Below are positions 6,192 through 17,231 of a stretch of 38,072 nt of DNA, piece by piece. This stretch comes from Candidatus Acidiferrales bacterium (GTDB lineage: Bacteria > Acidobacteriota > Terriglobia > Acidiferrales > UBA7541). Each line of letters begins with the position of its first letter. The stretch's first letter is position 1. The stretch covers positions 1-38,072 of the forward strand of contig DASRQP010000313.1 in NCBI GenBank assembly GCA_035696585.1, given 5' to 3'. Made by a program: the position numbers and the translations under genes. Below the pieces are notes generated by a model, which worked only from the letters and a program-made list of their open reading frames with translations, made no database searches and was not told the DNA's origin.

Positions 6192-6354
6192 TCGAAACTC
6201 CTCGGATATTCGATTGTGTCAGAACGCTTTGCGACGCAAGCATTTTCGCGTAAACACTGCGCGCAAATAAAGGAAAGGCATTTTAACATCAAGGAGAAGG
6301 TTGGCTAGCAAAGTTCTTTGCCGACGGCGGGAAAAACTGTGAACAGAGTCCAGG

Positions 6355-8622
6355 CTAAGTCGCAGCGGAACGACGGTCTTTGATTTCTTGCAAGTGCTGG
6401 CGAAGGCGGGCGAGAACTGCTTCACCCTGGCCCTCCGCGATTTCGCGTTCGAGTTCCGTCAATGCGAAATGAATGATGTCGTGATGGTGGATTTCCTCAC
6501 CCTTTAATTCATCGCTCAATCGAAGCCAAATATCGTGCAGCAAGTCGATTTCCTTTGGCGTCAGGTGCGGCGAGTGCGGGCCGAGGTAGAAAACCCGTTG
6601 CTGCCCGCCGGCGGTCACGATTTCGAGGGCCACGCGAGGACGCGGTTCGGGCATACGCTCCCAGGCGAGACCGACCTCGCGTGCCTGCTCGGTCAGCGGC
6701 ATCTTCGACGATCCCCCGACGACGATGGATGCCGACTGCAGATTCGCAGCGGAACGCAAAATGCCATCCCACAAGTCATTCGCGGCAGCCACGGCGAGGC
6801 GGACGGGTTTCCCTTCCTTCTCGGCAATGGCTAAGACTTTGGTGAAGAGGAGTTGCTCGATGGTACTGAAAAGCTGTTCGGGGTTCAGATCATATTCGCC
6901 AGATGCAGCGCGACGCAACAAGCGGATGTGGAGAACAACGATATCCTGCTCGTTCGTTCTCAATCGCTCGAGAACAGAATGCAGATGATAGAGCGCATAG
7001 TAGTTGCTGACGGGAACGAGAATGTTTCCCGGGCGAACGCCAACGCTCGCGGGAGTGATATCCGCCTCCTCTGACAGATTGAATTGATCGAGTTCCGTGG
7101 AGCGTGTCATGCCATGCTGTTTTAAAACTCTTCTCTCCGAGAGGGTAAATGCCACAAACAACAATGCGGAAAAGACCACGCCGGCAATTGTGGCATCGGG
7201 CTTGGTGAACAGATTTACGAGGGCAATGAGCAGCAGAACCAGGGTGATGAGGCCAAGGCCCACAGGAATTTCCGTGCCCGCGATTGTGAAGTTAAGTGGA
7301 ACGCGATATTCGCGGTCCTGGGGATGCGTATAGCGAAGGACGAGAACCCCGAAGCCCTTCATCGCGAAACTCCAAATGACGCCAAAGGCGTAAAGGTTGC
7401 CGAGAAAATTCACATCGCCGCGGCTGACCAGAATTGTAACGATCTGGAGCACCGCCACACTGGTAATGATTCGGTGTGTGGTCCCGTATCGGCGGTGAGG
7501 ATGGCGAAACCAGTCGGTTAATACACCGTCCTCCGAAATCCGGCTCAACACGCCGTTGGAGCCGACGATAGCGGTATTCACCGCGCCGGAAAGAATGAGC
7601 ATGCCGACGACAACCACAAAGACGTGAAAGGCGATGCGCAGGGCGAAGGGACCCTGCAGATGCATCGACAGGCCGCCGATGAGGTTTTCGAAGAACTGCG
7701 GCCGGATGCGGTCAGGGATAATCATGACGGCAAAAATGGAAACGAATGCCGTGAAGGCCAGGCTGTACGCCACGACGATAAGGGCGGTCTTCTTGAGGTT
7801 TGCGAGCTTGGGATGTTCGATTTCGCGATAGACCTGGGCGAGAGTCTCTTCGCCGCTCATGGCCAAGACAGAATGGCCAAGACCAACAAAGATCACGACG
7901 AGTGTGAGCGTGTGCGCCCAATGGAATTTGTTCAGCCATCCGAGCGAATGCTGGTCGAGAAGCATGTTCTGCGGCAACGGCGCGGGCGGCCAATGAGCGC
8001 CGCGAACGACAACGGTATAAATGCACCAGGCAATCAGAATGACCACCATCACGGTGGTCACTTGCATGATGCGCAGCGCCTTCTCGCTCGACTCGGGAAT
8101 GCCCTTGATGTTCTGCCACCAGAAATAAACGGTCACAAGAATGGCGATGGTTGCCGCCGTGGCGTTTACAGAAAGCGACACATGGAAGTGGCCGTAGCGT
8201 AGAAGCTCGTTAACCAAACCCGCGACGTATTGCCCTGCCGCGACGCCGCTGATTGGGCCGGTGAGAACGTAGTCGAACATCAACGCAGAGACGGAAAGTT
8301 TCGCAAGCCCTCCGCCCATCGCCTCTTTGACCACGCGATAAACGCCGCCCCGAACGAACATGCTGCAACTCTCGACGTAAATCAGGGAAACGGCGTAGGC
8401 CAGCAGCATTACACCCAGGATGAACCACGGCGCAGATTTGCCGATGAACAGTTCCGCTTCACCGCCCGCGTAATAAGCCGAGGAAGCTAAATCATTGAGA
8501 ACGATCGCGCCGGCGCGCCAGAAGGAAATGAAGCTGAGCATCGCCGTGGTGGCTACGAGGACGTTGACTGCGGGGCGCGCAGAACTCTTGAGTTGACCGG
8601 GCGGTGTGGGCTTGGATGCCAT
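6355..8622 (-). CDS. APC-superfamily amino acid/polyamine permease fused to a cytoplasmic USP-like C-terminal domain
   Basis: 755 aa. About 500 aa form a multi-TM permease (many long hydrophobic segments). These are followed by ~250 soluble aa starting NILVPVSNYYALYHLHSVL...VVLHI...IVVGGS, a universal-stress-protein-like pattern. Confidence 0.7.
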   Translation of the reverse strand: MASKPTPPGQLKSSARPAVNVLVATTAMLSFISFWRAGAIVLNDLASSAYYAGGEAELFIGKSAPWFILGVMLLAYAVSLIYVESCSMFVRGGVYRVVKEAMGGGLAKLSVSALMFDYVLTGPISGVAAGQYVAGLVNELLRYGHFHVSLSVNATAATIAILVTVYFWWQNIKGIPESSEKALRIMQVTTVMVVILIAWCIYTVVVRGAHWPPAPLPQNMLLDQHSLGWLNKFHWAHTLTLVVIFVGLGHSVLAMSGEETLAQVYREIEHPKLANLKKTALIVVAYSLAFTAFVSIFAVMIIPDRIRPQFFENLIGGLSMHLQGPFALRIAFHVFVVVVGMLILSGAVNTAIVGSNGVLSRISEDGVLTDWFRHPHRRYGTTHRIITSVAVLQIVTILVSRGDVNFLGNLYAFGVIWSFAMKGFGVLVLRYTHPQDREYRVPLNFTIAGTEIPVGLGLITLVLLLIALVNLFTKPDATIAGVVFSALLFVAFTLSERRVLKQHGMTRSTELDQFNLSEEADITPASVGVRPGNILVPVSNYYALYHLHSVLERLRTNEQDIVVLHIRLLRRAASGEYDLNPEQLFSTIEQLLFTKVLAIAEKEGKPVRLAVAAANDLWDGILRSAANLQSASIVVGGSSKMPLTEQAREVGLAWERMPEPRPRVALEIVTAGGQQRVFYLGPHSPHLTPKEIDLLHDIWLRLSDELKGEEIHHHDIIHFALTELEREIAEGQGEAVLARLRQHLQEIKDRRSAAT

Positions 8623-8737: not shown

Positions 8738-9124
8738 TTAGTCAGATTTTTCGCCGGAAAATTCGCGGACGCAAGACTCGCAGGGACAGATCTCGCGGAA
8801 ATGGCTGAAGCTGTAAATCCCCGTGGCGTGACCGTCGGTAAACTCAATTTGAATTGCGTAATTCCCCACCGCTGCCGCAGCGCGCGCGGTGACCTTAGGC
8901 TTGAATAGCGGCAGCGCGGCTGAACCACCGGAGATCTTTTCGGTGAGGCCGGCCTTCTTGTCGTCTGCTTCTCTGCAAGTGGCACAGGGGCAATGCTCGC
9001 GAAGGTAAGCAAAGTCATAATGGCTGGTATGCGCGTCGGACCAAGTGATATCTATGCCGGCTCCGGTGGAGACGTGAACCTTTACGTTGATGGGTTTCTT
9101 GCGAATGTCGAGTGGGATGGGCAT
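8738..9124 (-). CDS. DUF971-domain protein (gamma-butyrobetaine hydroxylase-like N-terminal fold)
   Basis: 128 aa with ITWSDAHTSHYDFAYLREHCPCATC and IEFTDGHATGIYSFSHFREICPCESC. This is the internally duplicated DUF971 pattern with two CPCxxC motifs. Confidence 0.75.
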   Translation of the reverse strand: MPIPLDIRKKPINVKVHVSTGAGIDITWSDAHTSHYDFAYLREHCPCATCREADDKKAGLTEKISGGSAALPLFKPKVTARAAAAVGNYAIQIEFTDGHATGIYSFSHFREICPCESCVREFSGEKSD

Positions 9125-9196: not shown

Positions 9197-10276
9197 TCAT
9201 TTGCCTTGTTCCTTTGCCGGGCAGCAAGGTCCTGGAGGAATGGGGTTGCCATGTGGGCATGTGACAGGATGGCCGAGGAAGCTGCAAATGCGCTCGTCGA
9301 GCTCCGGGCTGATGATGTGCTCGAATTTGCAGGCTTGCGAATCGGCCTCGGCATTGGCAATAGCAAACGTGTCTGTGAAGAGGCGCTCAGCGAGGCGGCG
9401 ACGGCGAACAACATCACGAGCGCGACGCTGGCCGCGGTCAGTCAGTTCAATTTCGGAATCGTGCATGGCGACCAAACCCACGACCGATAGGCGTTGCAGG
9501 GTACGTTCGGGATCGGCATCGAGGGAATGAAAACGCGCAAGTTTGGCGCGCTTGCCAATTTCGGCGCAGAGCCACAATTCTTCAAGCACGTGATCGATGC
9601 GCGCTTCGTCTTCGGAGGAGTAGACGGTGATTTGCGCGAGGCGGCCGTGCGCGAGCTCGATACGGCGATCCGCGAGACTGCCAATGGAGGGATCGTGCGT
9701 GACCATCAAGATTGTATGGCCCTCGTTGTGGAGATCGCGCAGAAGGCGAATCACGGTTTCTTCGTTGGCTTCGTCGAGATTTCCCGTTGGTTCGTCGGCA
9801 AGAATAAGCTTGGGATGATTGATGAGCGCGCGGGCGACGGCGACGCGCTGCTGTTCGCCGCCGGAAAGTTGCGAAGGAAGATGCAGGAGGCGTTCGCCCA
9901 AGCCGACGCGTCGAAGGGCTTCGGCGGCCTCATGTTCATCCGTGGTGCTGTGAAAATATTGCGCGAGCATGACGTTTTCAACCGCGGTGAGATACGGGAC
10001 GAGGTGAAACTGCTGAAAGACAAAACCGATTTTCTCGGCGCGAAAACGCGTGAGGCCCGTTTCGTCGAGACGGCCCACGTCAACGCCGTCGACGATGGCG
10101 CGGCCGTCCGTGGGCGTGTCGAGTCCGCCGAGAATATTGATGAGCGTAGTCTTACCGGAACCGGAAGGACCCATGATGGCGATCCATTCGCCAGATTCGA
10201 TGCTGAAGGAGACGCCATTCAGCGCGCAGACATCGCCGAAAGCTTTTCTTAGTTCCGTAACTTCGACGAGCGCCAC
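9197..10276 (-). CDS. MacB/LolD-type ABC transporter ATPase fused to a complete DtxR-family metal-dependent regulator module
   Basis: aa 1-215 carry Walker A GPSGSGKT, Q-loop, signature LSGGEQQR, Walker B LILADEPT and H-loop VTHD. aa ~222-348 carry LEELWLCAEIG...LQRLSVVGLVAMHDSEIELTDRGQRRARDVVRRRRLAERLFTD...ACKFEHIISPELDERICSFLGHPVTCPHGNPIP. This is colinear with DtxR winged-HTH plus dimerisation/metal domain (..HRLAERLLTD..ACRWEHVMS..CPFGNPIP). GTG start lies 3 nt after the upstream permease stop. Confidence 0.8.
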   Translation of the reverse strand: MALVEVTELRKAFGDVCALNGVSFSIESGEWIAIMGPSGSGKTTLINILGGLDTPTDGRAIVDGVDVGRLDETGLTRFRAEKIGFVFQQFHLVPYLTAVENVMLAQYFHSTTDEHEAAEALRRVGLGERLLHLPSQLSGGEQQRVAVARALINHPKLILADEPTGNLDEANEETVIRLLRDLHNEGHTILMVTHDPSIGSLADRRIELAHGRLAQITVYSSEDEARIDHVLEELWLCAEIGKRAKLARFHSLDADPERTLQRLSVVGLVAMHDSEIELTDRGQRRARDVVRRRRLAERLFTDTFAIANAEADSQACKFEHIISPELDERICSFLGHPVTCPHGNPIPPGPCCPAKEQGK

Positions 10277-10279
10277 TGA

Positions 10280-11431
10280 TTATTCTCCTCTTAAGATTAC
10301 GGCTGGACGAACATTGCCGAGCAAGCGCAAAGGCAAAGCTCCCGCGAGCGCGACGCAAAGCATTAAGATCACTGTGGCAGGCAGCACTTCCCATCGCGGA
10401 GAAATGCTCGCGCCGAAAACGCGATGGCCCATCCAAACAGAGAGAACCATGCCGAGCGCGTATCCGAGAATTCCGCCCAGGGTTCCGAGGACGCCGACCT
10501 CAGCAAGAAAAAGCCGCACCACTTTTTGAATCGAGCCGCCGAGGGCTTTCATCAGGCCGACGTCCTGGCGGCGCTCCATCGCGAGCGCAGCCATTGTTGC
10601 GAGCACGCACAACGCGGTGAGGACAAGAATCAGCAAACCCATAGAAAGAATCAAAAAGCGTATTCGCTGGAGAAGCTTCCCTTCCGCTTCCGTGATTTGC
10701 GGAATCGGTTTCACTTCAAGAGCCGGAAAGGCGGTCTGGAGCGTGTCCGCAACGGTGCGGATTTGCGCCGCTGAGCCGGGAACGCTCAATTGGATCAGCT
10801 CAATCTTGCCGTCGAGGCCGGCAAGTTTTTGCGCGACGGGCAAGTTGACGAAAATCTGATTGTCTTCCGAGCCGCCCGCATCCGTGACCCCCGCAACCGC
10901 GAGAGTTACGCTGCGGCCTTGATACGACAAGGCGATATTGCCGCCCGCCGAAAGGCCCAGACTGTTGCTCACATTGCGGCCGATGAGACATCGAGAAAGA
11001 TCCGTTCGCGAAACACTTCCGGTTCCGGCAATTTTCCACCATGGTTCCATTTGCGAGACGCGGTCGAGCCAAGTTCCCGTGACGACGACATCCTGTCCAT
11101 TCTTGGAGCCAGTGCGCGCGACGAGATACAAATCCGGAGACGCAACCGCGCCTGAAACCTGGGATTGACGGTCAATGCTTTGCTCAACATCCTGCATGAC
11201 CGATTCATCCATAAGCGGCGGTACGCCGGGTGCTGCGGATGAGGTCTGCGGCGCGGAGATGACAACATTCGCGCCGAGGGAGCGAAATTCCTGCGTGAGC
11301 TTGTGGTTGATATCCAAATCGAGATTCAACAGTGCCGACACAACTGCGCCACCGCTGATGAGCGCGAGCAGTGCCACAACGAGCCGCACGCGGTTTCCAC
11401 GAAGCAAATGGAAGAGCAGGCGCTTGAACAC
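10280..11431 (-). CDS. ABC transporter permease, FtsX/MacB-like
   Basis: 383 aa with an N-terminal TM, a ~230-aa extracytoplasmic domain, then a C-terminal FtsX-type TM bundle (MERRQDVGLMKALGGS motif). Its GTG start overlaps the preceding TAG by 1 nt (TAGTG). Confidence 0.85.
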   Translation of the reverse strand: MFKRLLFHLLRGNRVRLVVALLALISGGAVVSALLNLDLDINHKLTQEFRSLGANVVISAPQTSSAAPGVPPLMDESVMQDVEQSIDRQSQVSGAVASPDLYLVARTGSKNGQDVVVTGTWLDRVSQMEPWWKIAGTGSVSRTDLSRCLIGRNVSNSLGLSAGGNIALSYQGRSVTLAVAGVTDAGGSEDNQIFVNLPVAQKLAGLDGKIELIQLSVPGSAAQIRTVADTLQTAFPALEVKPIPQITEAEGKLLQRIRFLILSMGLLILVLTALCVLATMAALAMERRQDVGLMKALGGSIQKVVRLFLAEVGVLGTLGGILGYALGMVLSVWMGHRVFGASISPRWEVLPATVILMLCVALAGALPLRLLGNVRPAVILRGE

Positions 11432-12723
11432 TACTGCCCCCTCAGAATGGGCGCGGGCGGGACATGGGCGGCGCGATAAAGCGGAATCCAGCTTCCAAGC
11501 AACGCGACGGCAGCAGCCGCCGCGAGAATTATCGGCAGGACGATCAGGCGCGGTAAAGTCGCGATACCAAAGACTGTTTCACCCAACTCGCGCGCGAGGC
11601 CCGCGCCGAGCAGAAAACCCAAGCAGCCTCCGGCGATGGCCAAGAGCAATTGCTCGCAGAGAAACAAACCACCGACCAGAAAATTGGTTGCGCCCAGGGC
11701 TTTCATCAGGCCGACCTCGACGCGACGCTCCATGGCCGTAGTGGCCGAAGTGGCGCCGACAGCAAGAGCGGCGGCAATGAGCGCGGCGATGGTGACAATC
11801 CAGAGAAGAAGACTGACGCGCGAGAGTACGCGGCCTTCGGTCTCTGCAACGCGGCGGATGGCTTCAACGTGAGTGCCGGGGAGAACTTCCTGAATCTGGC
11901 GGCCGATCGAAGTGATGTACGGCGAACAATACCAGCGGTCGAATTCGGTGGACGTCATCTTGTTGGGATCTTGTTGCGAGAAGGCATCGGCCGGCTTGGT
12001 GAGAGCGCTGACAAAGAGCTGGCGAAATTCGCCGGGCTTGCCGCCGAGATCCTGGGCCAAGGAAAGCGGGCAGAGCACGGCGTCGTCCTGCGAATCGCCG
12101 GTTGTGACGATGCCAGTCACGGTCGCGAGAGATTCGCGGGAATCCACGCTGAGATTTAAGTCGTCACCGATGGCGATTCCATATTTTTGTGCTACGGACG
12201 CGCCGGCCACGCAATCCTTCGAATCGTCGGCGAACCATTGGCCGCGAATCTTCCACCATGGATGAGTGAAACTGGCGCCGGTCGCAAAAGTGGTGCCGTC
12301 TTCAATCGGCACGGAGTGCCTGTACCAAGTGCCGATGAGTGTAGTCTGGAATTGGGTGGTGTTGGCACCAGCCCGTTCGATGCCGGCCCGGACGGGAATA
12401 TCGAGAAAGGGAGTAAAGCCGAGAATATTGTGGCGCCAGAAAATGGTCTTGAGCTTGGGCAGAGCCGAAGTGGAAAGATAGGCGCCCTGATCGACTGGAC
12501 GGTAGTCAACGCCGCCAATCTCGACGGGCAGAGTGTCCGCTTGCGGCGTGACCAGCAAGTTTGCGCCGAGGCTGCGGAACTCGCGCGCGAGTTGATCTCC
12601 AACATCGACTGCGACGGTGAATGTGGCCGTGGCAACGGCCATGCCGAGAACCAACGCAATTCCGGTGAGCACTTTCCGGCGCGGGTTGCGTGTGAACGAT
12701 TCTCTTAGGAGGCGGATGAACAT
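11431..12723 (-). CDS. ABC transporter permease, FtsX/MacB-like
   Basis: 430 aa with the same architecture (MERRVEVGLMKALGATN motif). It starts 15 nt downstream of the FTR1-DUF2318 gene. Confidence 0.85.
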   Translation of the reverse strand: MFIRLLRESFTRNPRRKVLTGIALVLGMAVATATFTVAVDVGDQLAREFRSLGANLLVTPQADTLPVEIGGVDYRPVDQGAYLSTSALPKLKTIFWRHNILGFTPFLDIPVRAGIERAGANTTQFQTTLIGTWYRHSVPIEDGTTFATGASFTHPWWKIRGQWFADDSKDCVAGASVAQKYGIAIGDDLNLSVDSRESLATVTGIVTTGDSQDDAVLCPLSLAQDLGGKPGEFRQLFVSALTKPADAFSQQDPNKMTSTEFDRWYCSPYITSIGRQIQEVLPGTHVEAIRRVAETEGRVLSRVSLLLWIVTIAALIAAALAVGATSATTAMERRVEVGLMKALGATNFLVGGLFLCEQLLLAIAGGCLGFLLGAGLARELGETVFGIATLPRLIVLPIILAAAAAVALLGSWIPLYRAAHVPPAPILRGQ

Positions 12724-12738
12724 GTGCGTTTGATGCGT

Positions 12739-14037
12739 CTATTTCTGAATCCGCGAGGCCGCGTCGACGATGGCCGAAAGATCGAGGACTATATTCGTTC
12801 CTTCGACACGCGACTTGAAGGCAATGGGATTGCAGCCTCCGGGCATGCCAATTTCGGCGGCGTTCACGGGGGCGCCACAGTTGCGGCAAATCAAGACCGA
12901 ACCTTCCTGGCGATAACCTATCAGACCGCAGATTTCGCAGGCATCAAGCGCGCTGACGAAGTCGCCATTGGGCTTGCGCATCACAAAAAAGCGAAATGCG
13001 GTCCCCTGCACGTCCACCGTGTAGAAATGGACGGAGACTCCGCTCATTTCCGCCAGCGGGAGCCGAACAAGGTTTCCAACTGCTGCGACATGCTCTGCTT
13101 CAGGAGGAGCAGCGGACGCGCGTGTATAAACAAACTCAGCCGTGAGGGAGAGTATGACCGCAAGGCACAGAAAGGCCGCCGCGAAACTCCATCCCCGACG
13201 ACGGCGATACTCGTGCTCTCGGAGGCGCTTTTCAGCGGGATTCGCGGGCGCATCAAGCGCGGCGCCGCCAGTGCCGCCACTTTTTCCGCCAGCCTCACCT
13301 CCGTGGAGCGCGAACCATTCGCGCAATACCACAATTGCAGCGACGCCGAGAATAACAACGAAGAAGAAGTATTCGTTGCGGACGATGGGACCGATCGTCG
13401 CCATTTCCTGCTTGCTCGATGGAAGCCATGTGGCCTCGCTCAATTCATGCAAGCCTGTCAGGGCAAGTTGAAATGCGACGACCATCAAGATCGTGCTGGT
13501 GGCGGCGAAAAAGCGGCCAAGAGGAATCTTAAGCGTCCCTTGGAAGAAAAACAGGCCCACGGCGACGGCCATGGCGATTCCGATTCCAGTGCCAATCCAC
13601 ACTTGAAGGCCTGCAATGGAGAGCTCCACGGCGCGAAGAATCAGGATCAGTTCGGCGCCCTCGCGCAAAACCATCAGGAAAACAAAAAAACCGATTCCCC
13701 ACCCCGCTGCACGCTCGCTCTTCTGTGCGTAGGTCTCGACGCGCTGTTCGATTTCTTTGCGCAGGCGACGCGCGACGCGGTTCATCCAAATAATCATGGA
13801 GACAACGAGAGCGGCAGCGGCCAGCATAAGCACGCCCTCGAATCCGTCTTCGCTGACCTGCCAGCGCTGCAGCAGAACAGCGGCCGCGAAACTGCACGCG
13901 ATAGCAACTGCAACGCCAGCCCACACGTAACGCGCCAATTGGCGGCGGCCCGTGCGATTGAGATAGACTAAGACAATGCCGACCACAAGGGCGGCTTCAA
14001 CGCCTTCGCGGAGAGCGAGTAGGAGTGCGGAAAGCAT
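12739..14037 (-). CDS. FTR1-family high-affinity iron permease fused to a C-terminal DUF2318 Cys-rich domain
   Basis: 432 aa. Two REGxE motifs sit in TM segments (REGVE aa 10-14, REGAE aa 125-129), diagnostic of FTR1/EfeU. After a Gly-rich linker and an extra TM comes FYTVDVQGTAFRFFVMRKPNGDFVSALDACEICGLIGYRQEGSVLICRNCGAPV...IGMPGGCNPIAF, the DUF2318 signature (DACxxCG..GY...CxNCG...GGCNP). Confidence 0.85.
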   Translation of the reverse strand: MLSALLLALREGVEAALVVGIVLVYLNRTGRRQLARYVWAGVAVAIACSFAAAVLLQRWQVSEDGFEGVLMLAAAALVVSMIIWMNRVARRLRKEIEQRVETYAQKSERAAGWGIGFFVFLMVLREGAELILILRAVELSIAGLQVWIGTGIGIAMAVAVGLFFFQGTLKIPLGRFFAATSTILMVVAFQLALTGLHELSEATWLPSSKQEMATIGPIVRNEYFFFVVILGVAAIVVLREWFALHGGEAGGKSGGTGGAALDAPANPAEKRLREHEYRRRRGWSFAAAFLCLAVILSLTAEFVYTRASAAPPEAEHVAAVGNLVRLPLAEMSGVSVHFYTVDVQGTAFRFFVMRKPNGDFVSALDACEICGLIGYRQEGSVLICRNCGAPVNAAEIGMPGGCNPIAFKSRVEGTNIVLDLSAIVDAASRIQK

Positions 14038-14069
14038 TTAGGAGTCGAGCCCAGTTGTAACTCAGTATC

Positions 14070-14085
14070 AACTAGGAATTCCGAG
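14070..14085. promoter_or_regulatory. imperfect 16-bp palindrome in the divergent FTR1/secretin control region (candidate operator)
   Basis: ACTAGGAATTCCGAGT has 12 of 16 positions symmetric around GGAATTCC. It lies 33-48 nt upstream of the FTR1 ATG and overlaps the spacer of a weak GATACT -10 candidate on the minus strand. Confidence 0.2.
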
Positions 14086-14198
14086 TGTATCGCTCTGTGA
14101 AAATATCGTCAAGGGAAATACCCTACATTCGATAGACTTTCCTAAGTGCACAAACGAGGCGTGTTCGACAGTCAAATACGCCATCACGTCGCAAGGAC

Positions 14199-17100
14199 TT
14201 GGAGGCACGCCTTGGCTTTCGCGGCACAGACGCGGGCAACTGCACGAGCTTCAAGCCAATCTCTGTAAGAATAGCGAACAGGTATATTCATTTGCGTCTA
14301 CTTCTAACGATCGCGTTTGGTCTGTGCGCCGCGCTTGGCACATTCGGCGGACAGGTGCAGACGCCAGCCAAGTCTCCCTCTGGGGCCGTTCAAAAAAGAA
14401 ACTACGATTCCAAGCGCTCGAAAGAGGCGTACGAGCGCGGGATGAAAGCGGAGAAGCAGAAGAATTGGCCGATGGCATTTGCCGCCTACACGGAAGCCGC
14501 GCAACAAGATGCAACAAAGCCGGAATATTTATTGCGTAGAGAGTTCGCCCGAAGCGAGTTGGTGAGCGCATCCGTGGACCGCGCGGAGCGGGACGCGTTG
14601 ACAGGCCACCTGGCCGAGGCACGCGAGGAATTGGACGCAGCGCTGGTGCTTGACCCGAGCGATGAGATGGTGCGCGAGAGGCTGGCGCAACTGGCGCCGT
14701 CCTCTGCCGCCGCTCTGCGGCAACTGATGACCAAGCCCGCAGGCGTGGTGCGACTGGAGCCGCTGACGGCTACGCACAGCTTCGATTATCGGGGCGATAC
14801 GATAAGCGCATACGAAGCAGTGGCGCGCGACTTTGGCGTGGACGCCTCGTTTGATGTAGAGCTGCAATCGAAGCCCGTTCACTTGCAAGTCACTAATGTT
14901 GATTTTACAACCGCCATGCGCGTGCTCGGCGATATGACCGGAACGTTCTGGCGGCCACTGACGGGCAGGCTTTTCTTTGTAGCCGCCGACACGCCAGAAA
15001 AACGCCGCGCGTACGATCTGTCGGTGGTAAGCACCGTGGAACTGCCTGCCTCCGAAACGCCAAACGACATGACCGAGGTGCTGCGCATCGTCCGCGATAT
15101 CGCAGGAATCACGCGTGCGCAACTGAATTCATCGGCGCGAACCATTACGATGCGGGCATCGCCGCAGGCAATTTCGGTGGCGACGAAATTGCTCGCCCAA
15201 CTTGAGGAGCCGCGCGGAGAAATGGTGTTGGAAGTGGAAATTCTCGAAGTGGACCGCAACGCCGCCAGCCAAATCGGAATTACGCCGCCTACATCGGTGT
15301 CAGCGTTCTCTCTGACGCCGCAACAGATTCAAACTGCACAATCCGGCATAGCGGGACTCATAGGAGTGATTGAACAACTTTTCGGACCGACAAGCGCACT
15401 GTCGGGATTGGGCGCGAACCAAATTGCCTCGTTGGTGGGATCAGGGCAAGTGGGCGTAGGCTCGCTGATTCCGCCGCTGATTGCGTTTGGTGGGGGAAAG
15501 ACGACATTTCTGTCGACCCTGCCCGGAGCGGCAGCGGCGTTCTCAGATACGCTGAATGTCGTAAAAAGCGGCAAGCGCGTCCTGCTGAGAGCGGAGGACG
15601 ACAAGCCCGTTACGTTCTTCGTCGGGGACCGCGTGCCGATTGCGCTGGCGCAATTCTCTTCGGGCCTGACGTCGTCGAGTTTCATCCCCAATGTGTCGTC
15701 CAGCCTCTTTCCGCGAACGGATTTTGCCACAGGGAAGAATCCCGTTGCGATTGTCGCGGCGGACTTCAATGCTGATGGCAACGTGGACCTGGCAAACGCC
15801 AATCACGATGACAACACCGTGTCCATTTTCCTTGGAAACGGCGATGGAACATTCACGAGTAAAGGAACCCTGGCGACCGGGCTGGGCCCTGTTGCGCTGG
15901 TTACCGCGGACTTTAATAACGACAGCGTTCCCGACCTGGCTGTGGTGAACCAGACAGACGATACGGTTTCTATTTTCCTCGGCAACGGCGACGGCACATT
16001 TACGCTCAAGGGGACTTTCGCTACAGGAAAGAATCCGGTCGCGGCCGTGACGGCGGATTTCAATGGAGACGGCCATACGGATCTCGCGGTAGTCAATCAA
16101 AGCGATAACACCGTCTCAGTCCTGCTCGGGAATGGCGATGGAACGTTTCAACCGCAAACTGTGATCTCAACAGGGCAAGGTCCATCAGCAATCGCCACCG
16201 CGGACTTCAATAACGATGGCAAGGCAGATCTCGCGATTACAAACCAGTCGGCGAATACCGTCTCGATTTTTCTGGGGAACGGAGACGGAACTTTTGCCGG
16301 CAGTGGAACGCTTCCTACAGGGACTTTGCCGGTCGCGATTGCCGCGGGACAGTTCAACGTCAACACCAGCACGAATGTTGGATTAGTCGTTGTCAATCAG
16401 ACGGATAACACCATCTCGAATTTCCTGGGCAATGGCGACGGAACGTTCACGTCGAATGGCACTTCGGCGTTAAGCGTCAGCGCGACTACCGGTAATAAGC
16501 CAGTGGCGATTGCTGCCGGGGATTTCAACGTAGACGGGCGAACAGATTTGGCGATATCAGATGAGAACGCAGACCTGGTAGACATCTTGATCGGCAATGG
16601 CGACGGCACGTTTGCTTCGCTGCTACAGCTTCCGACCGGAACGGGGCCCATCGGCCTGGTCACTGGAGAGTTTCTGGGCGCGGCCCATCCACCGGATCTG
16701 GCCGTGACGGATTCGACGGCCAACACGATTTCCGTGATATTGGACAACGCCACTTTTAGTTCGACGAATAGTGCTGCAGCGCCGATTCCGTTCCCCAGTT
16801 CCCAGTATGAGGACATCGGGCTAAAGATGAAGGCAACTCCTCACATGCACGCGGACGGTGACGTAACGCTCGAGTTGCACTTCGAACTGCGCAGTCTGAC
16901 GGGAGATTCCGTAAACAGCATACCCGTGATCAGCAATCAGACAATCGATCAGACGGTCCGCGTGAAGGATGAGGAAACAACTGCGCTGGCAGGGATCATC
17001 GAATCACAAGAAATGCGTGCTATCAATGGCACTCCTGGAGTGGCGGATCTGGGGCCGTTTGGGTTGCTGGGAAGCAAACGCAGCACACAAAATGACAAAA

Positions 17101-17231
17101 CGGAATTGTTGGTACTGGTAACTCCGAGAGTGGTGAGTTGGAACCCTAAGACCGCTAAACCAATCTACGCAGGACGCGCGCCGGTCGACGTCGGTGGATT
17201 TGTTTCTTTGCCAGGTCGACCGGTGCCGTAG
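14199..17231 (+). CDS. secretin-family outer-membrane protein with a seven-blade FG-GAP beta-propeller inserted in the secretin domain
   Basis: 1010-aa ORF. The likely true start is TTG 14292 (MRLLLTIAFGLCAALGTFGGQ signal peptide). The N-terminal ~100 aa are helical and TPR-like. Secretin N-domains follow (VHLQVTNVDFTTAMRVLGDMTG...; ITMRASPQAISVATKLLAQLEEP). The secretin core starts at VLEVEILEVD...FFVGDRVPIA, then 7 FG-GAP repeats, and resumes at YEDIGLKMKATPHMHADGDVTLELHFELRSL...IPVISNQTIDQTVRVKDEETTALAGII...GTPGVADLGPFGLLG...ELLVLVTPRVV. Confidence 0.8.
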   Translation: MEARLGFRGTDAGNCTSFKPISVRIANRYIHLRLLLTIAFGLCAALGTFGGQVQTPAKSPSGAVQKRNYDSKRSKEAYERGMKAEKQKNWPMAFAAYTEAAQQDATKPEYLLRREFARSELVSASVDRAERDALTGHLAEAREELDAALVLDPSDEMVRERLAQLAPSSAAALRQLMTKPAGVVRLEPLTATHSFDYRGDTISAYEAVARDFGVDASFDVELQSKPVHLQVTNVDFTTAMRVLGDMTGTFWRPLTGRLFFVAADTPEKRRAYDLSVVSTVELPASETPNDMTEVLRIVRDIAGITRAQLNSSARTITMRASPQAISVATKLLAQLEEPRGEMVLEVEILEVDRNAASQIGITPPTSVSAFSLTPQQIQTAQSGIAGLIGVIEQLFGPTSALSGLGANQIASLVGSGQVGVGSLIPPLIAFGGGKTTFLSTLPGAAAAFSDTLNVVKSGKRVLLRAEDDKPVTFFVGDRVPIALAQFSSGLTSSSFIPNVSSSLFPRTDFATGKNPVAIVAADFNADGNVDLANANHDDNTVSIFLGNGDGTFTSKGTLATGLGPVALVTADFNNDSVPDLAVVNQTDDTVSIFLGNGDGTFTLKGTFATGKNPVAAVTADFNGDGHTDLAVVNQSDNTVSVLLGNGDGTFQPQTVISTGQGPSAIATADFNNDGKADLAITNQSANTVSIFLGNGDGTFAGSGTLPTGTLPVAIAAGQFNVNTSTNVGLVVVNQTDNTISNFLGNGDGTFTSNGTSALSVSATTGNKPVAIAAGDFNVDGRTDLAISDENADLVDILIGNGDGTFASLLQLPTGTGPIGLVTGEFLGAAHPPDLAVTDSTANTISVILDNATFSSTNSAAAPIPFPSSQYEDIGLKMKATPHMHADGDVTLELHFELRSLTGDSVNSIPVISNQTIDQTVRVKDEETTALAGIIESQEMRAINGTPGVADLGPFGLLGSKRSTQNDKTELLVLVTPRVVSWNPKTAKPIYAGRAPVDVGGFVSLPGRPVP
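15708..16748 (+). repeat. seven tandem coding FG-GAP/VCBS-like repeats (~50 aa each)
   Basis: Repeat consensus P-V-A-x-x-x-ADFNxDGxxDLAVxNxxxNTVSIFLGNGDGTF. The Ca-binding-like DxNxDGxxD is intact in blades 1-4 and 6 and degenerate in blades 5 (GQFNVNTSTNVGL) and 7 (GEFLGAAHPPDL). Confidence 0.85.

Follow-up and report, generated by a model that had tools for sequence, protein, structure and literature searches.

The window analysed here, a stretch of 38,072 nucleotides from Candidatus Acidiferrales bacterium (GenBank assembly GCA_035696585.1, contig DASRQP010000313.1), encodes an ATP-binding cassette (ABC) ATPase with a two-domain DtxR-type module permanently attached at its C-terminus. A sequence-only reading of this DNA had offered two functions for the attached module: a metal sensor that directly gates ATP hydrolysis, or a transcription factor tethered to a transporter. 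Of these two, the evidence favours the first. On the basis of sequence, structural models and analogy with known transporters, we consider it somewhat more likely than not that the tail serves as a cytoplasmic metal sensor gating the ATPase of an FTR1-type iron uptake system rather than as a DNA-binding repressor, with transcription separately under Fur.

The fused gene (Table 1) is an uninterrupted open reading frame (ORF), with neither a stop nor a frameshift, and starts 3 nt past the stop codon of the upstream permease gene. Pfam finds ABC_tran (PF00005) at residues 19-164 (E 3e-35) and Fe_dep_repr_C (PF02742) at residues 279-347 (E 1.6e-25), the latter scoring 89 bits on the tail against a cut-off of 27. 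The motifs of the nucleotide-binding domain (NBD) are all in the translation: Walker A (GPSGSGKT), Q-loop, signature (LSGGEQQR), Walker B (LILADEPT) and the histidine of the H-loop (TH194D). The best partial NCBIfam matches of the NBD are MacB, LolD and FtsE, and Foldseek places the N-terminal half of the full-length structural model on the ABC domain of E. coli MacB (TMt 0.88, 44% identity). The fusion of a MacB/LolD-type ATPase to a DtxR-type module, as originally proposed, is thus borne out by a single stop-free frame and by the agreement of Pfam, NCBIfam and Foldseek. The NBD is also 62% identical to Salmonella FlsC across residues 4-212 (E 2e-95), and that is where FlsC terminates. Given this identity and the matching gene order described below, we take the window gene to be an FlsC/Cj1663 orthologue in which the DtxR-like tail is an added element. 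The linker between the two parts is moderately conserved in the family alignment.

The tail, of about 135 residues, is a real DtxR/IdeR domain 1+2 core. A phmmer search against the PDB aligned residues 243-347 colinearly with residues ~28-135 of IdeR/DtxR (E 1.5e-17), and in an exhaustive HMMER search residues ~5-135 of canonical DtxR-like proteins of 210-250 amino acids aligned to positions ~13-140 of the tail at 40-48% identity. AlphaFold2 predicts the tail alone with high confidence (predicted local distance difference test, pLDDT, 89.6; predicted template modelling score, pTM, 0.82) and with the topology a1-a2-a3-beta hairpin-a4-a5-a6. Foldseek superposes this model on two-domain IdeR/DtxR with template modelling (TM) scores of 0.77-0.79 and root-mean-square deviations of 1.5-2.4 Å over 126-134 columns, which implies that the winged-helix part is there structurally too; in comparison with DtxR, IdeR and MntR as a group, the domain 1+2 fold is shared at a TM score of 0.78 and 30-33% identity. 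These searches agree with the original claim that the C-terminal ~135 residues follow the winged helix-turn-helix (wHTH) and the dimerisation/metal core of DtxR colinearly; the region then singled out (9200-9613) corresponds to residues 222-359, and every peptide string quoted from it occurs in the protein. That reading had gone too far in calling the module a full regulator. The tail lacks the third DtxR domain, which is SH3/FeoA-like, and is thus a two-domain core; of the three Pfam families it had named, ABC_tran and Fe_dep_repr_C are found, whereas PF01325 (Fe_dep_repress) gave no match even at E<=10 when the tail alone and the helix-turn-helix (HTH) part alone were scanned.

The fusion is also real in the sense of not being peculiar to this contig, and it is old. 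With the whole protein as query, the search gave at least 120 clusters at the 90% identity level, 355-367 residues long, all with both PF00005 and PF02742 and at 71-100% identity, from contigs of up to 1.28 Mb in NCBI, JGI, ENA and Logan. A second subfamily of ~408 residues with the same two domains contributes at least 120 further clusters at 90% identity, which brings the total over both subfamilies to at least 240. At least 564 relatives of the tail came to light when GTDB species genomes were scanned, and the best 80 of these loci are almost all in metagenome-assembled genomes (MAGs) of Acidobacteriota (Acidoferrales/Acidiferrales, Terriglobales and Bryobacterales). No cultured host appears among the best 80 genome loci or the best 120 clusters of each subfamily, all of which are MAGs or metagenomes, and the phylogenetic survey that had been suggested at the outset thus places the fusion, among the matches listed, nearly entirely in uncultured Acidobacteriota. 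Five loci with the typical acidobacterial operon carry MAG titles from elsewhere (L008, L021, L051, L059 and L020, with titles naming Patescibacteria, Udaeobacter, Dormiibacterota, Verrucomicrobiia or Pyrinomonadaceae); these are probably mis-binned contigs and not cases of horizontal transfer.

A sequencing or assembly error that artificially joined two neighbouring genes would be the most trivial explanation, and public annotation at first seems to speak for it, often showing only a short 'iron dependent repressor' of 89-132 residues at this place. Those short proteins turn out to be gene calls from internal methionines within the intact fused ORF. The tail and the Walker A motif share one stop-free frame in 83/84 loci, the remaining locus running off its contig end, and with the frame likewise intact in the clusters from NCBI, JGI, ENA and Logan we regard the artefact as refuted, with next to no probability left to it. 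The database proteins of 89, 96 and 132 residues are accordingly gene-calling artefacts, including the window's own 89-residue call from Met271 (9197-9466). In L001, similarly, one ORF of 382 codons spans ATPase and tail (6251-7399), and the record calls only the final 132 codons (7001-7399). Four apparently stand-alone versions, examined as possible natural split genes (P0001, P0011, P0016 and P0075), are internal-start calls of the same kind inside intact fused ORFs, and so give no evidence for fission. In the databases the fusion is either mis-split or named only 'ATP-binding cassette domain-containing protein'. As a separate matter of annotation, public calls frequently label the fragment 'iron dependent repressor' or 'metal-dependent transcriptional regulator' and leave the ATPase part uncalled, a systematic mis-annotation; mis-split calls labelled as transcriptional regulators would inflate regulator counts in Acidobacteria. 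Our literature searches for an ATPase-DtxR fusion found no paper describing one in the library searched, in line with the earlier remark that it was not known to have been characterised.

Conservation of individual residues was assessed in 120 fused proteins and 82 genome loci. The positions that form the primary (regulatory) metal site of DtxR, M10, C102, E105 and H106, appear from the alignment to be filled by H229, C316, E319 and H320. The last three are invariant or nearly so, as is E297 at the position of DtxR E83, and nt 9317-9331 read CKFEH (residues 316-320), so that the primary-site ligands are kept as first noticed. On helix a1, D228 (the DtxR E9 position) is present in 82/82 loci, and H229 is conserved except in the Terriglobales group, which has Glu. 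The tail therefore has in common with DtxR, IdeR and MntR the ligands C102, E105, H106 and E83 together with a ligand at the M10 position, which has become His or Glu. The ancillary site (H79, E83, H98 and residues of the SH3 domain) is only partly kept, with R293, E297 and D312 in the window protein and the SH3 domain gone; the replacement of both ancillary histidines had been correctly read, and position 293 is His in 64/82 related loci. Another detail of that reading needs correction: the motif given as CPFGNPIP is SPFGNPIP or SPYGNPIP in IdeR, and the Cys in the CPHG of the window is a feature of the tail subfamily that solved DtxR proteins lack. More generally, the tail adds six Cys/His residues (C331, H336, C340, H342, C351 and C352) that are invariant or nearly so in the fused proteins, are kept in FeoA-type relatives, and are not matched in any solved sequence of the DtxR family; at these positions IdeR has V/L, N, S and Y/F. 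The metal/dimerisation domain has the lowest column entropy (0.45 bits, compared with 0.57 in the ATPase core) and the stretch from helix 2 to helix 3 the highest (1.74 bits), with the wing at 1.64; the winged-helix-like subdomain, helix a1 excepted, is the most variable part of the protein.

This pattern can be read in ways other than metal sensing. The tail might be a constitutive dimerisation or scaffold domain, in which a permanent structural metal (Zn on the Cys/His set, for example) helps to hold the NBDs or to dock a protein, and nothing is sensed. The features conserved most strongly, the dimerisation domain and an additional Cys/His-rich motif typical of structural metal sites, would suit such a role, and C-terminal dimerising domains do tether the NBDs in MalK- and MetN-type ATPases (PMC4245157). 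The ligands that have been kept, however, are those of the regulatory (activation) site of DtxR, including the helix a1 ligand D228/H229, and the characterised orthologous systems run on a plain ATPase of 231 residues, which argues that a scaffold is not needed for function; we therefore consider this reading unlikely. The six extra Cys/His residues raise a different prospect, that the tail senses something else, by binding an iron-sulphur (Fe-S) cluster or by forming a thiol redox switch that reports on Fe-S status or oxidative stress. Their invariance, their absence from all solved DtxR proteins and the presence of Cys-rich operon partners (DUF2318 and DUF971) all point that way, but the set fits no known Fe-S motif and the classical primary metal site is invariant too, and such a sensor seems to us quite improbable.

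The second of the two functions first offered is that of a transcription factor held at the membrane. The tail would be a working DtxR-type repressor that, once loaded with metal, binds the operator preceding its operon and perhaps further promoters as well; transport status and transcription would then be coupled in a single protein. Several features are what one would expect of it: the complete wHTH fold is predicted confidently and superposes on DNA-bound IdeR, most Acidoferrales members keep R262 (DtxR R47) and R258, and a 21-bp palindrome is conserved on the promoter of the fusion-encoding operons in the great majority of loci. The same palindrome also provides contrary evidence. Its consensus is AGTTGCAAATCATTTTCAACT in Acidoferrum and GAAATTGAAATTCATTTTC in Terriglobales, the latter matching 14/19 positions of the classical Fur box. 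At least 10/14 positions of the Fur 7-1-7 consensus are matched in 55% of loci, as against 4.9% of shuffles, whereas the IdeR/DtxR box shows no such enrichment. Moreover, the operator is essentially the same across groups whose HTH and wing differ by large insertions: one Acidoferrum subgroup has 9-10 extra residues in the helix 2-helix 3 turn, and the Terriglobales group has a 31-residue insertion in the wing together with a helix 3 that contains no Arg (PVSIAVEKM). Together with the missing PF01325 match and the variability of HTH and wing, this speaks against DNA binding by the tail. The HTH faces would probably also be crowded by the ATPase, since the linker to the NBD is only ~13 residues long. 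The net charge of the HTH region (~0, versus +2 in DtxR) does not discriminate. On these sequence comparisons the tethered-factor reading is disfavoured, and we judge it decidedly unlikely. The Terriglobales wing insertion is of some interest in itself: in these fusions of ~408 residues (L062-L084; for example L069, 6335-7552) it is conserved and rich in His, Cys and Pro (PHPPEPHHHKPFVNPCHDALKP...), and it may be an extra metal-binding loop.

The other places where the box occurs suggest what may bind the operator. A metagenome scan for the box yielded 80 stretches, of which 50 lie at FTR1 promoters. Among the remaining 30 are sites before Nramp/MntH (five loci), ZnuA-family binding proteins, an outer-membrane barrel, PepSY_TM proteins, ZrgA and two Fur-family regulator genes, one of them divergent from Nramp. 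The presence of the box before Nramp, ZnuA, PepSY_TM, ZrgA and Fur-family genes, the last with the look of autoregulation, counts further against the tethered factor and points to a metal-uptake regulon under an autoregulated soluble Fur-family repressor. From the sequence of its operator, then, transcription of the window operon is probably controlled by a soluble Fur-family repressor; the tail's operon has a Fur-like and not a DtxR box. Sites with the box include the window's own (14053-14073) and those in L093, L095, L112, L117, L144, L155, L159, L163, L146, L143 and L113. Written as AGTTGCAAAT-S-ATTNNCAACT or AGTTGCAAAT-N-ATTTGCAACT, the box looks like that of a Fur-family metal regulon of soil bacteria. 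In a position weight matrix scan of 1.1 Mb of syntenic loci every operator match lay at an FTR1 promoter, which is uninformative because these neighbourhoods repeat the same genes. An earlier candidate for the operator, the palindrome ACTCGGAATTCCTAGT, is not conserved in other loci and was replaced by the 21-bp AGTTG-N11-CAACT box.

The favoured mechanism, gating of the ATPase by a metal sensor, can be laid out as follows. The two tails of an NBD dimer would pair via the DtxR dimerisation domain, and cytoplasmic Fe2+ (possibly Mn2+) would bind at the primary site, formed by H229/D228 on helix a1 and C316/E319/H320 on helix a5. We expect Fe2+ to be preferred over Mn2+, since the ligands (Cys, His and Glu) are of the kind found in DtxR/IdeR and differ from those of MntR. 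The bound metal would clamp a1 onto the dimerisation domain and so fix the spacing or orientation of the NBDs. As a1 begins only ~15 residues past the last NBD strand, such a clamp should fix the NBD positions and alter ATP hydrolysis. ATPase activity would change, most plausibly in that NBD closure is blocked at high cytoplasmic metal and uptake is off within seconds; inhibition at high metal is the sensible direction for a system that serves uptake. The result would be a two-tier control, in which the tail gates the transporter and the Fur-family repressor handles transcription.

There is good precedent for such a scheme. In MetN and ModC, regulatory domains at the C-terminus bind the substrate that is transported and keep the NBDs from closing, which gives trans-inhibition in MetNI and ModBC. 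The regulatory domain of ModC, moreover, is folded like the ligand domain of the repressor ModE (PMC4245157), so that an ABC ATPase bearing the sensor fold of a repressor is already known. In MetN (C2) and in ModC and MalK (TOBE/Mop), a dimerising, ligand-sensing domain stands C-terminal to the NBD, an architecture that the window protein shares and from which we extrapolate to regulation. The parallel has its limits, in that the sensor of these type I importers is TOBE or ACT-like, whereas the window combines a DtxR fold with a type VII, MacB-like mechanotransducer. Likewise, DtxR, IdeR and MntR are free proteins, whereas the tail is fused, without an SH3/FeoA domain or a PF01325 match, and with a variable HTH that tolerates large insertions.

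Several points weigh against the gating model. We know of no type VII ABC system that uses a C-terminal regulatory domain. The full-length structural model has low inter-domain confidence (pTM 0.55), and the coupling geometry it implies is correspondingly uncertain. The Acidoferrales group shows fair conservation of R258 and R262 (the DtxR Q43 and R47 positions), and the structural model keeps the wHTH fold with high confidence, so that the tail may have some affinity for DNA. The box-bearing metagenome contigs are not assignable to organisms with the fusion. Finally, the substrates of the ABC part of the Fls and Cj systems, like the role of that module, are stated to be unknown (PMC6083913, PMC7285068).

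The closest relatives of the tail that are not fused to an ATPase are free-standing Cys/His-rich DtxR-like proteins with Fe_dep_repr_C and FeoA domains (P0248, P0251 and P0257; 40-48% identity). They share with the tail the Cys/His set, a weak or absent PF01325 match and a variable HTH, which in their case is often acidic at the Q43/R47 positions, but they are soluble and keep the third (FeoA/SH3) domain. Their genes lie directly downstream of feoB in 3/3 informative contexts (L085, 2688-5660; L088, 665-3578; L089, 126-3065), two further contigs that are too short to judge being excluded from this count. The adjacency could simply be due to these proteins repressing feo locally; alternatively, a Cys/His-rich DtxR clade may have become attached recurrently to ferrous-iron importers. 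A bolder version, which we put forward tentatively and with more doubt than belief, is that the members of the whole clade are no longer DNA-binding repressors but plug-in iron sensors that gate ferrous-iron importers, fused to FlsC in Acidobacteria and to FeoA, beside FeoB, in other phyla. Were this so, it would be the first case of trans-inhibition by a metal through a DtxR fold. It would also give a first hint, from function, that the Fls/Cj1661-63 ABC module is the step at which FTR1/P19 iron uptake is both regulated and coupled to energy.

The operon around the fused gene (Table 1) resembles known iron-uptake clusters. That of C. jejuni (Cj1658-1665) comprises FTR1, P19, a DUF2318 membrane protein, two permeases, the ATPase and thioredoxins (PMC6083913), and the Salmonella plasmid cluster consists of FTR1, P19, an 'Fe-S-containing protein' (DUF2318), two permeases, the 231-residue ATPase and TlpA. 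The window operon has its gene order in common with these FetMP-Fls / Cj1658-1665 systems of Salmonella, E. coli, Yersinia and Campylobacter, which also have a Fur-type box upstream (PMC7285068, PMC6083913). It differs from them in three respects: their FlsC is plain, whereas the window ATPase has a DtxR-like tail of 135-145 residues; FTR1 and DUF2318 are separate genes there and a single fused gene here; and they have P19 and thioredoxin genes, whereas the window operon has neither and has a DUF971 gene after it. We found no P19/FetP gene in the operon or in the rest of the window.

The FTR1-DUF2318 fusion protein has 432 residues (Pfam FTR1, 4e-38; FtrD-like, 3e-25), its DUF2318 domain being 37-40% identical to enterobacterial FlsD, and the same fusion occurs in related loci. 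The order FTR1-DUF2318, FtsX, FtsX, ATPase-tail is found in essentially all loci with sufficient flank. The DUF971 gene stands directly after the ATPase-tail gene in Acidoferrales-type loci and not in Terriglobales or Bryobacterales loci; its product has CPCxxC-type motifs and occupies the place of the thioredoxin/TlpA gene in enterobacterial clusters. On the other side, and divergent from the FTR1 operon, 14199-17231 (plus strand) encodes a protein of 1010 residues with TPR, FG-GAP repeat and Secretin domains, the operator-bearing intergenic region being common to both. This arrangement recurs in ~60 Acidoferrales-type loci, and the protein could belong to the iron system as a co-regulated component in the outer membrane.

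Table 1. Features of the fused gene, its operon and its promoter (nucleotide positions in the window; residue numbers are those of the fused protein)
Feature	Position	Strand	Basis or remark
Fused gene, FlsC-type ABC ATPase plus DtxR-like tail	9197..10276	minus	359 residues, GTG start; ORF list
NBD, type VII MacB/LolD/FtsE class, residues 1-213	9638..10276	minus	Pfam, NCBIfam, Foldseek, motifs
Linker, residues 214-226, AQITVYSSEDEAR, from last NBD strand to tail helix a1	9599..9637	minus	Family alignment, predicted secondary structure
Winged-helix-like subdomain, residues 227-284 (a1, a2, a3, beta-hairpin wing)	9425..9598	minus	AlphaFold2 tail model, Foldseek
Dimerisation/metal-binding domain, residues 285-352, Fe_dep_repr_C	9221..9424	minus	Pfam, PDB alignment
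Extra Cys/His set C331, H336, C340, H342, C351, C352 (ICSFLGHPVTCPHGNPIPPGPCC)	9221..9286	minus	Candidate additional metal or structural site, putative role
FtsX/MacB_PCD permease, FlsB-like	10280..11431	minus	Pfam, synteny
FtsX/MacB_PCD permease, FlsA-like	11431..12723	minus	Pfam, synteny
FTR1/EfeU-type iron permease fused to DUF2318 (FtrD-like) Cys-rich domain, first operon gene	12739..14037	minus	Pfam, NCBIfam EfeU, synteny
DUF971 / GBBH-like_N small Cys-rich protein, possible last operon gene	8738..9124	minus	Pfam 7e-25, synteny
Candidate sigma-70 promoter TTGACG-17-TACACT	14084..14112	minus	TTGAC..TAnACT arrangement seen in orthologous loci
21-bp palindromic operator AGTTGATACTGAGTTACAACT (gene strand), Fur-box-like	14053..14073	.	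10 nt downstream of -10

Both protein families are already known, as is the principle of C-terminal regulatory domains on ABC ATPases; the novelty lies in a DtxR fold as the putative regulatory tail, and in the ATPase that carries it, which is type VII and FlsC-type and belongs to an FTR1 system. Fls clusters linked to FTR1/P19 occur widely and are important for virulence in Campylobacter, Salmonella, Yersinia and E. coli. A sensor fold fused onto the FlsC-type ATPase suggests that iron entry is controlled at the ABC step, and it yields a concrete model, metal-dependent gating of the ATPase. Such gating would carry trans-inhibition from type I importers to type VII mechanotransducers and from the TOBE and C2 folds to the DtxR fold, and it would be a second case, after ModE/ModC, in which the sensor domain of a repressor has been re-used on a transporter. 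The family is abundant in soil metagenomes, and the fusion thus bears on how dominant soil bacteria handle iron.

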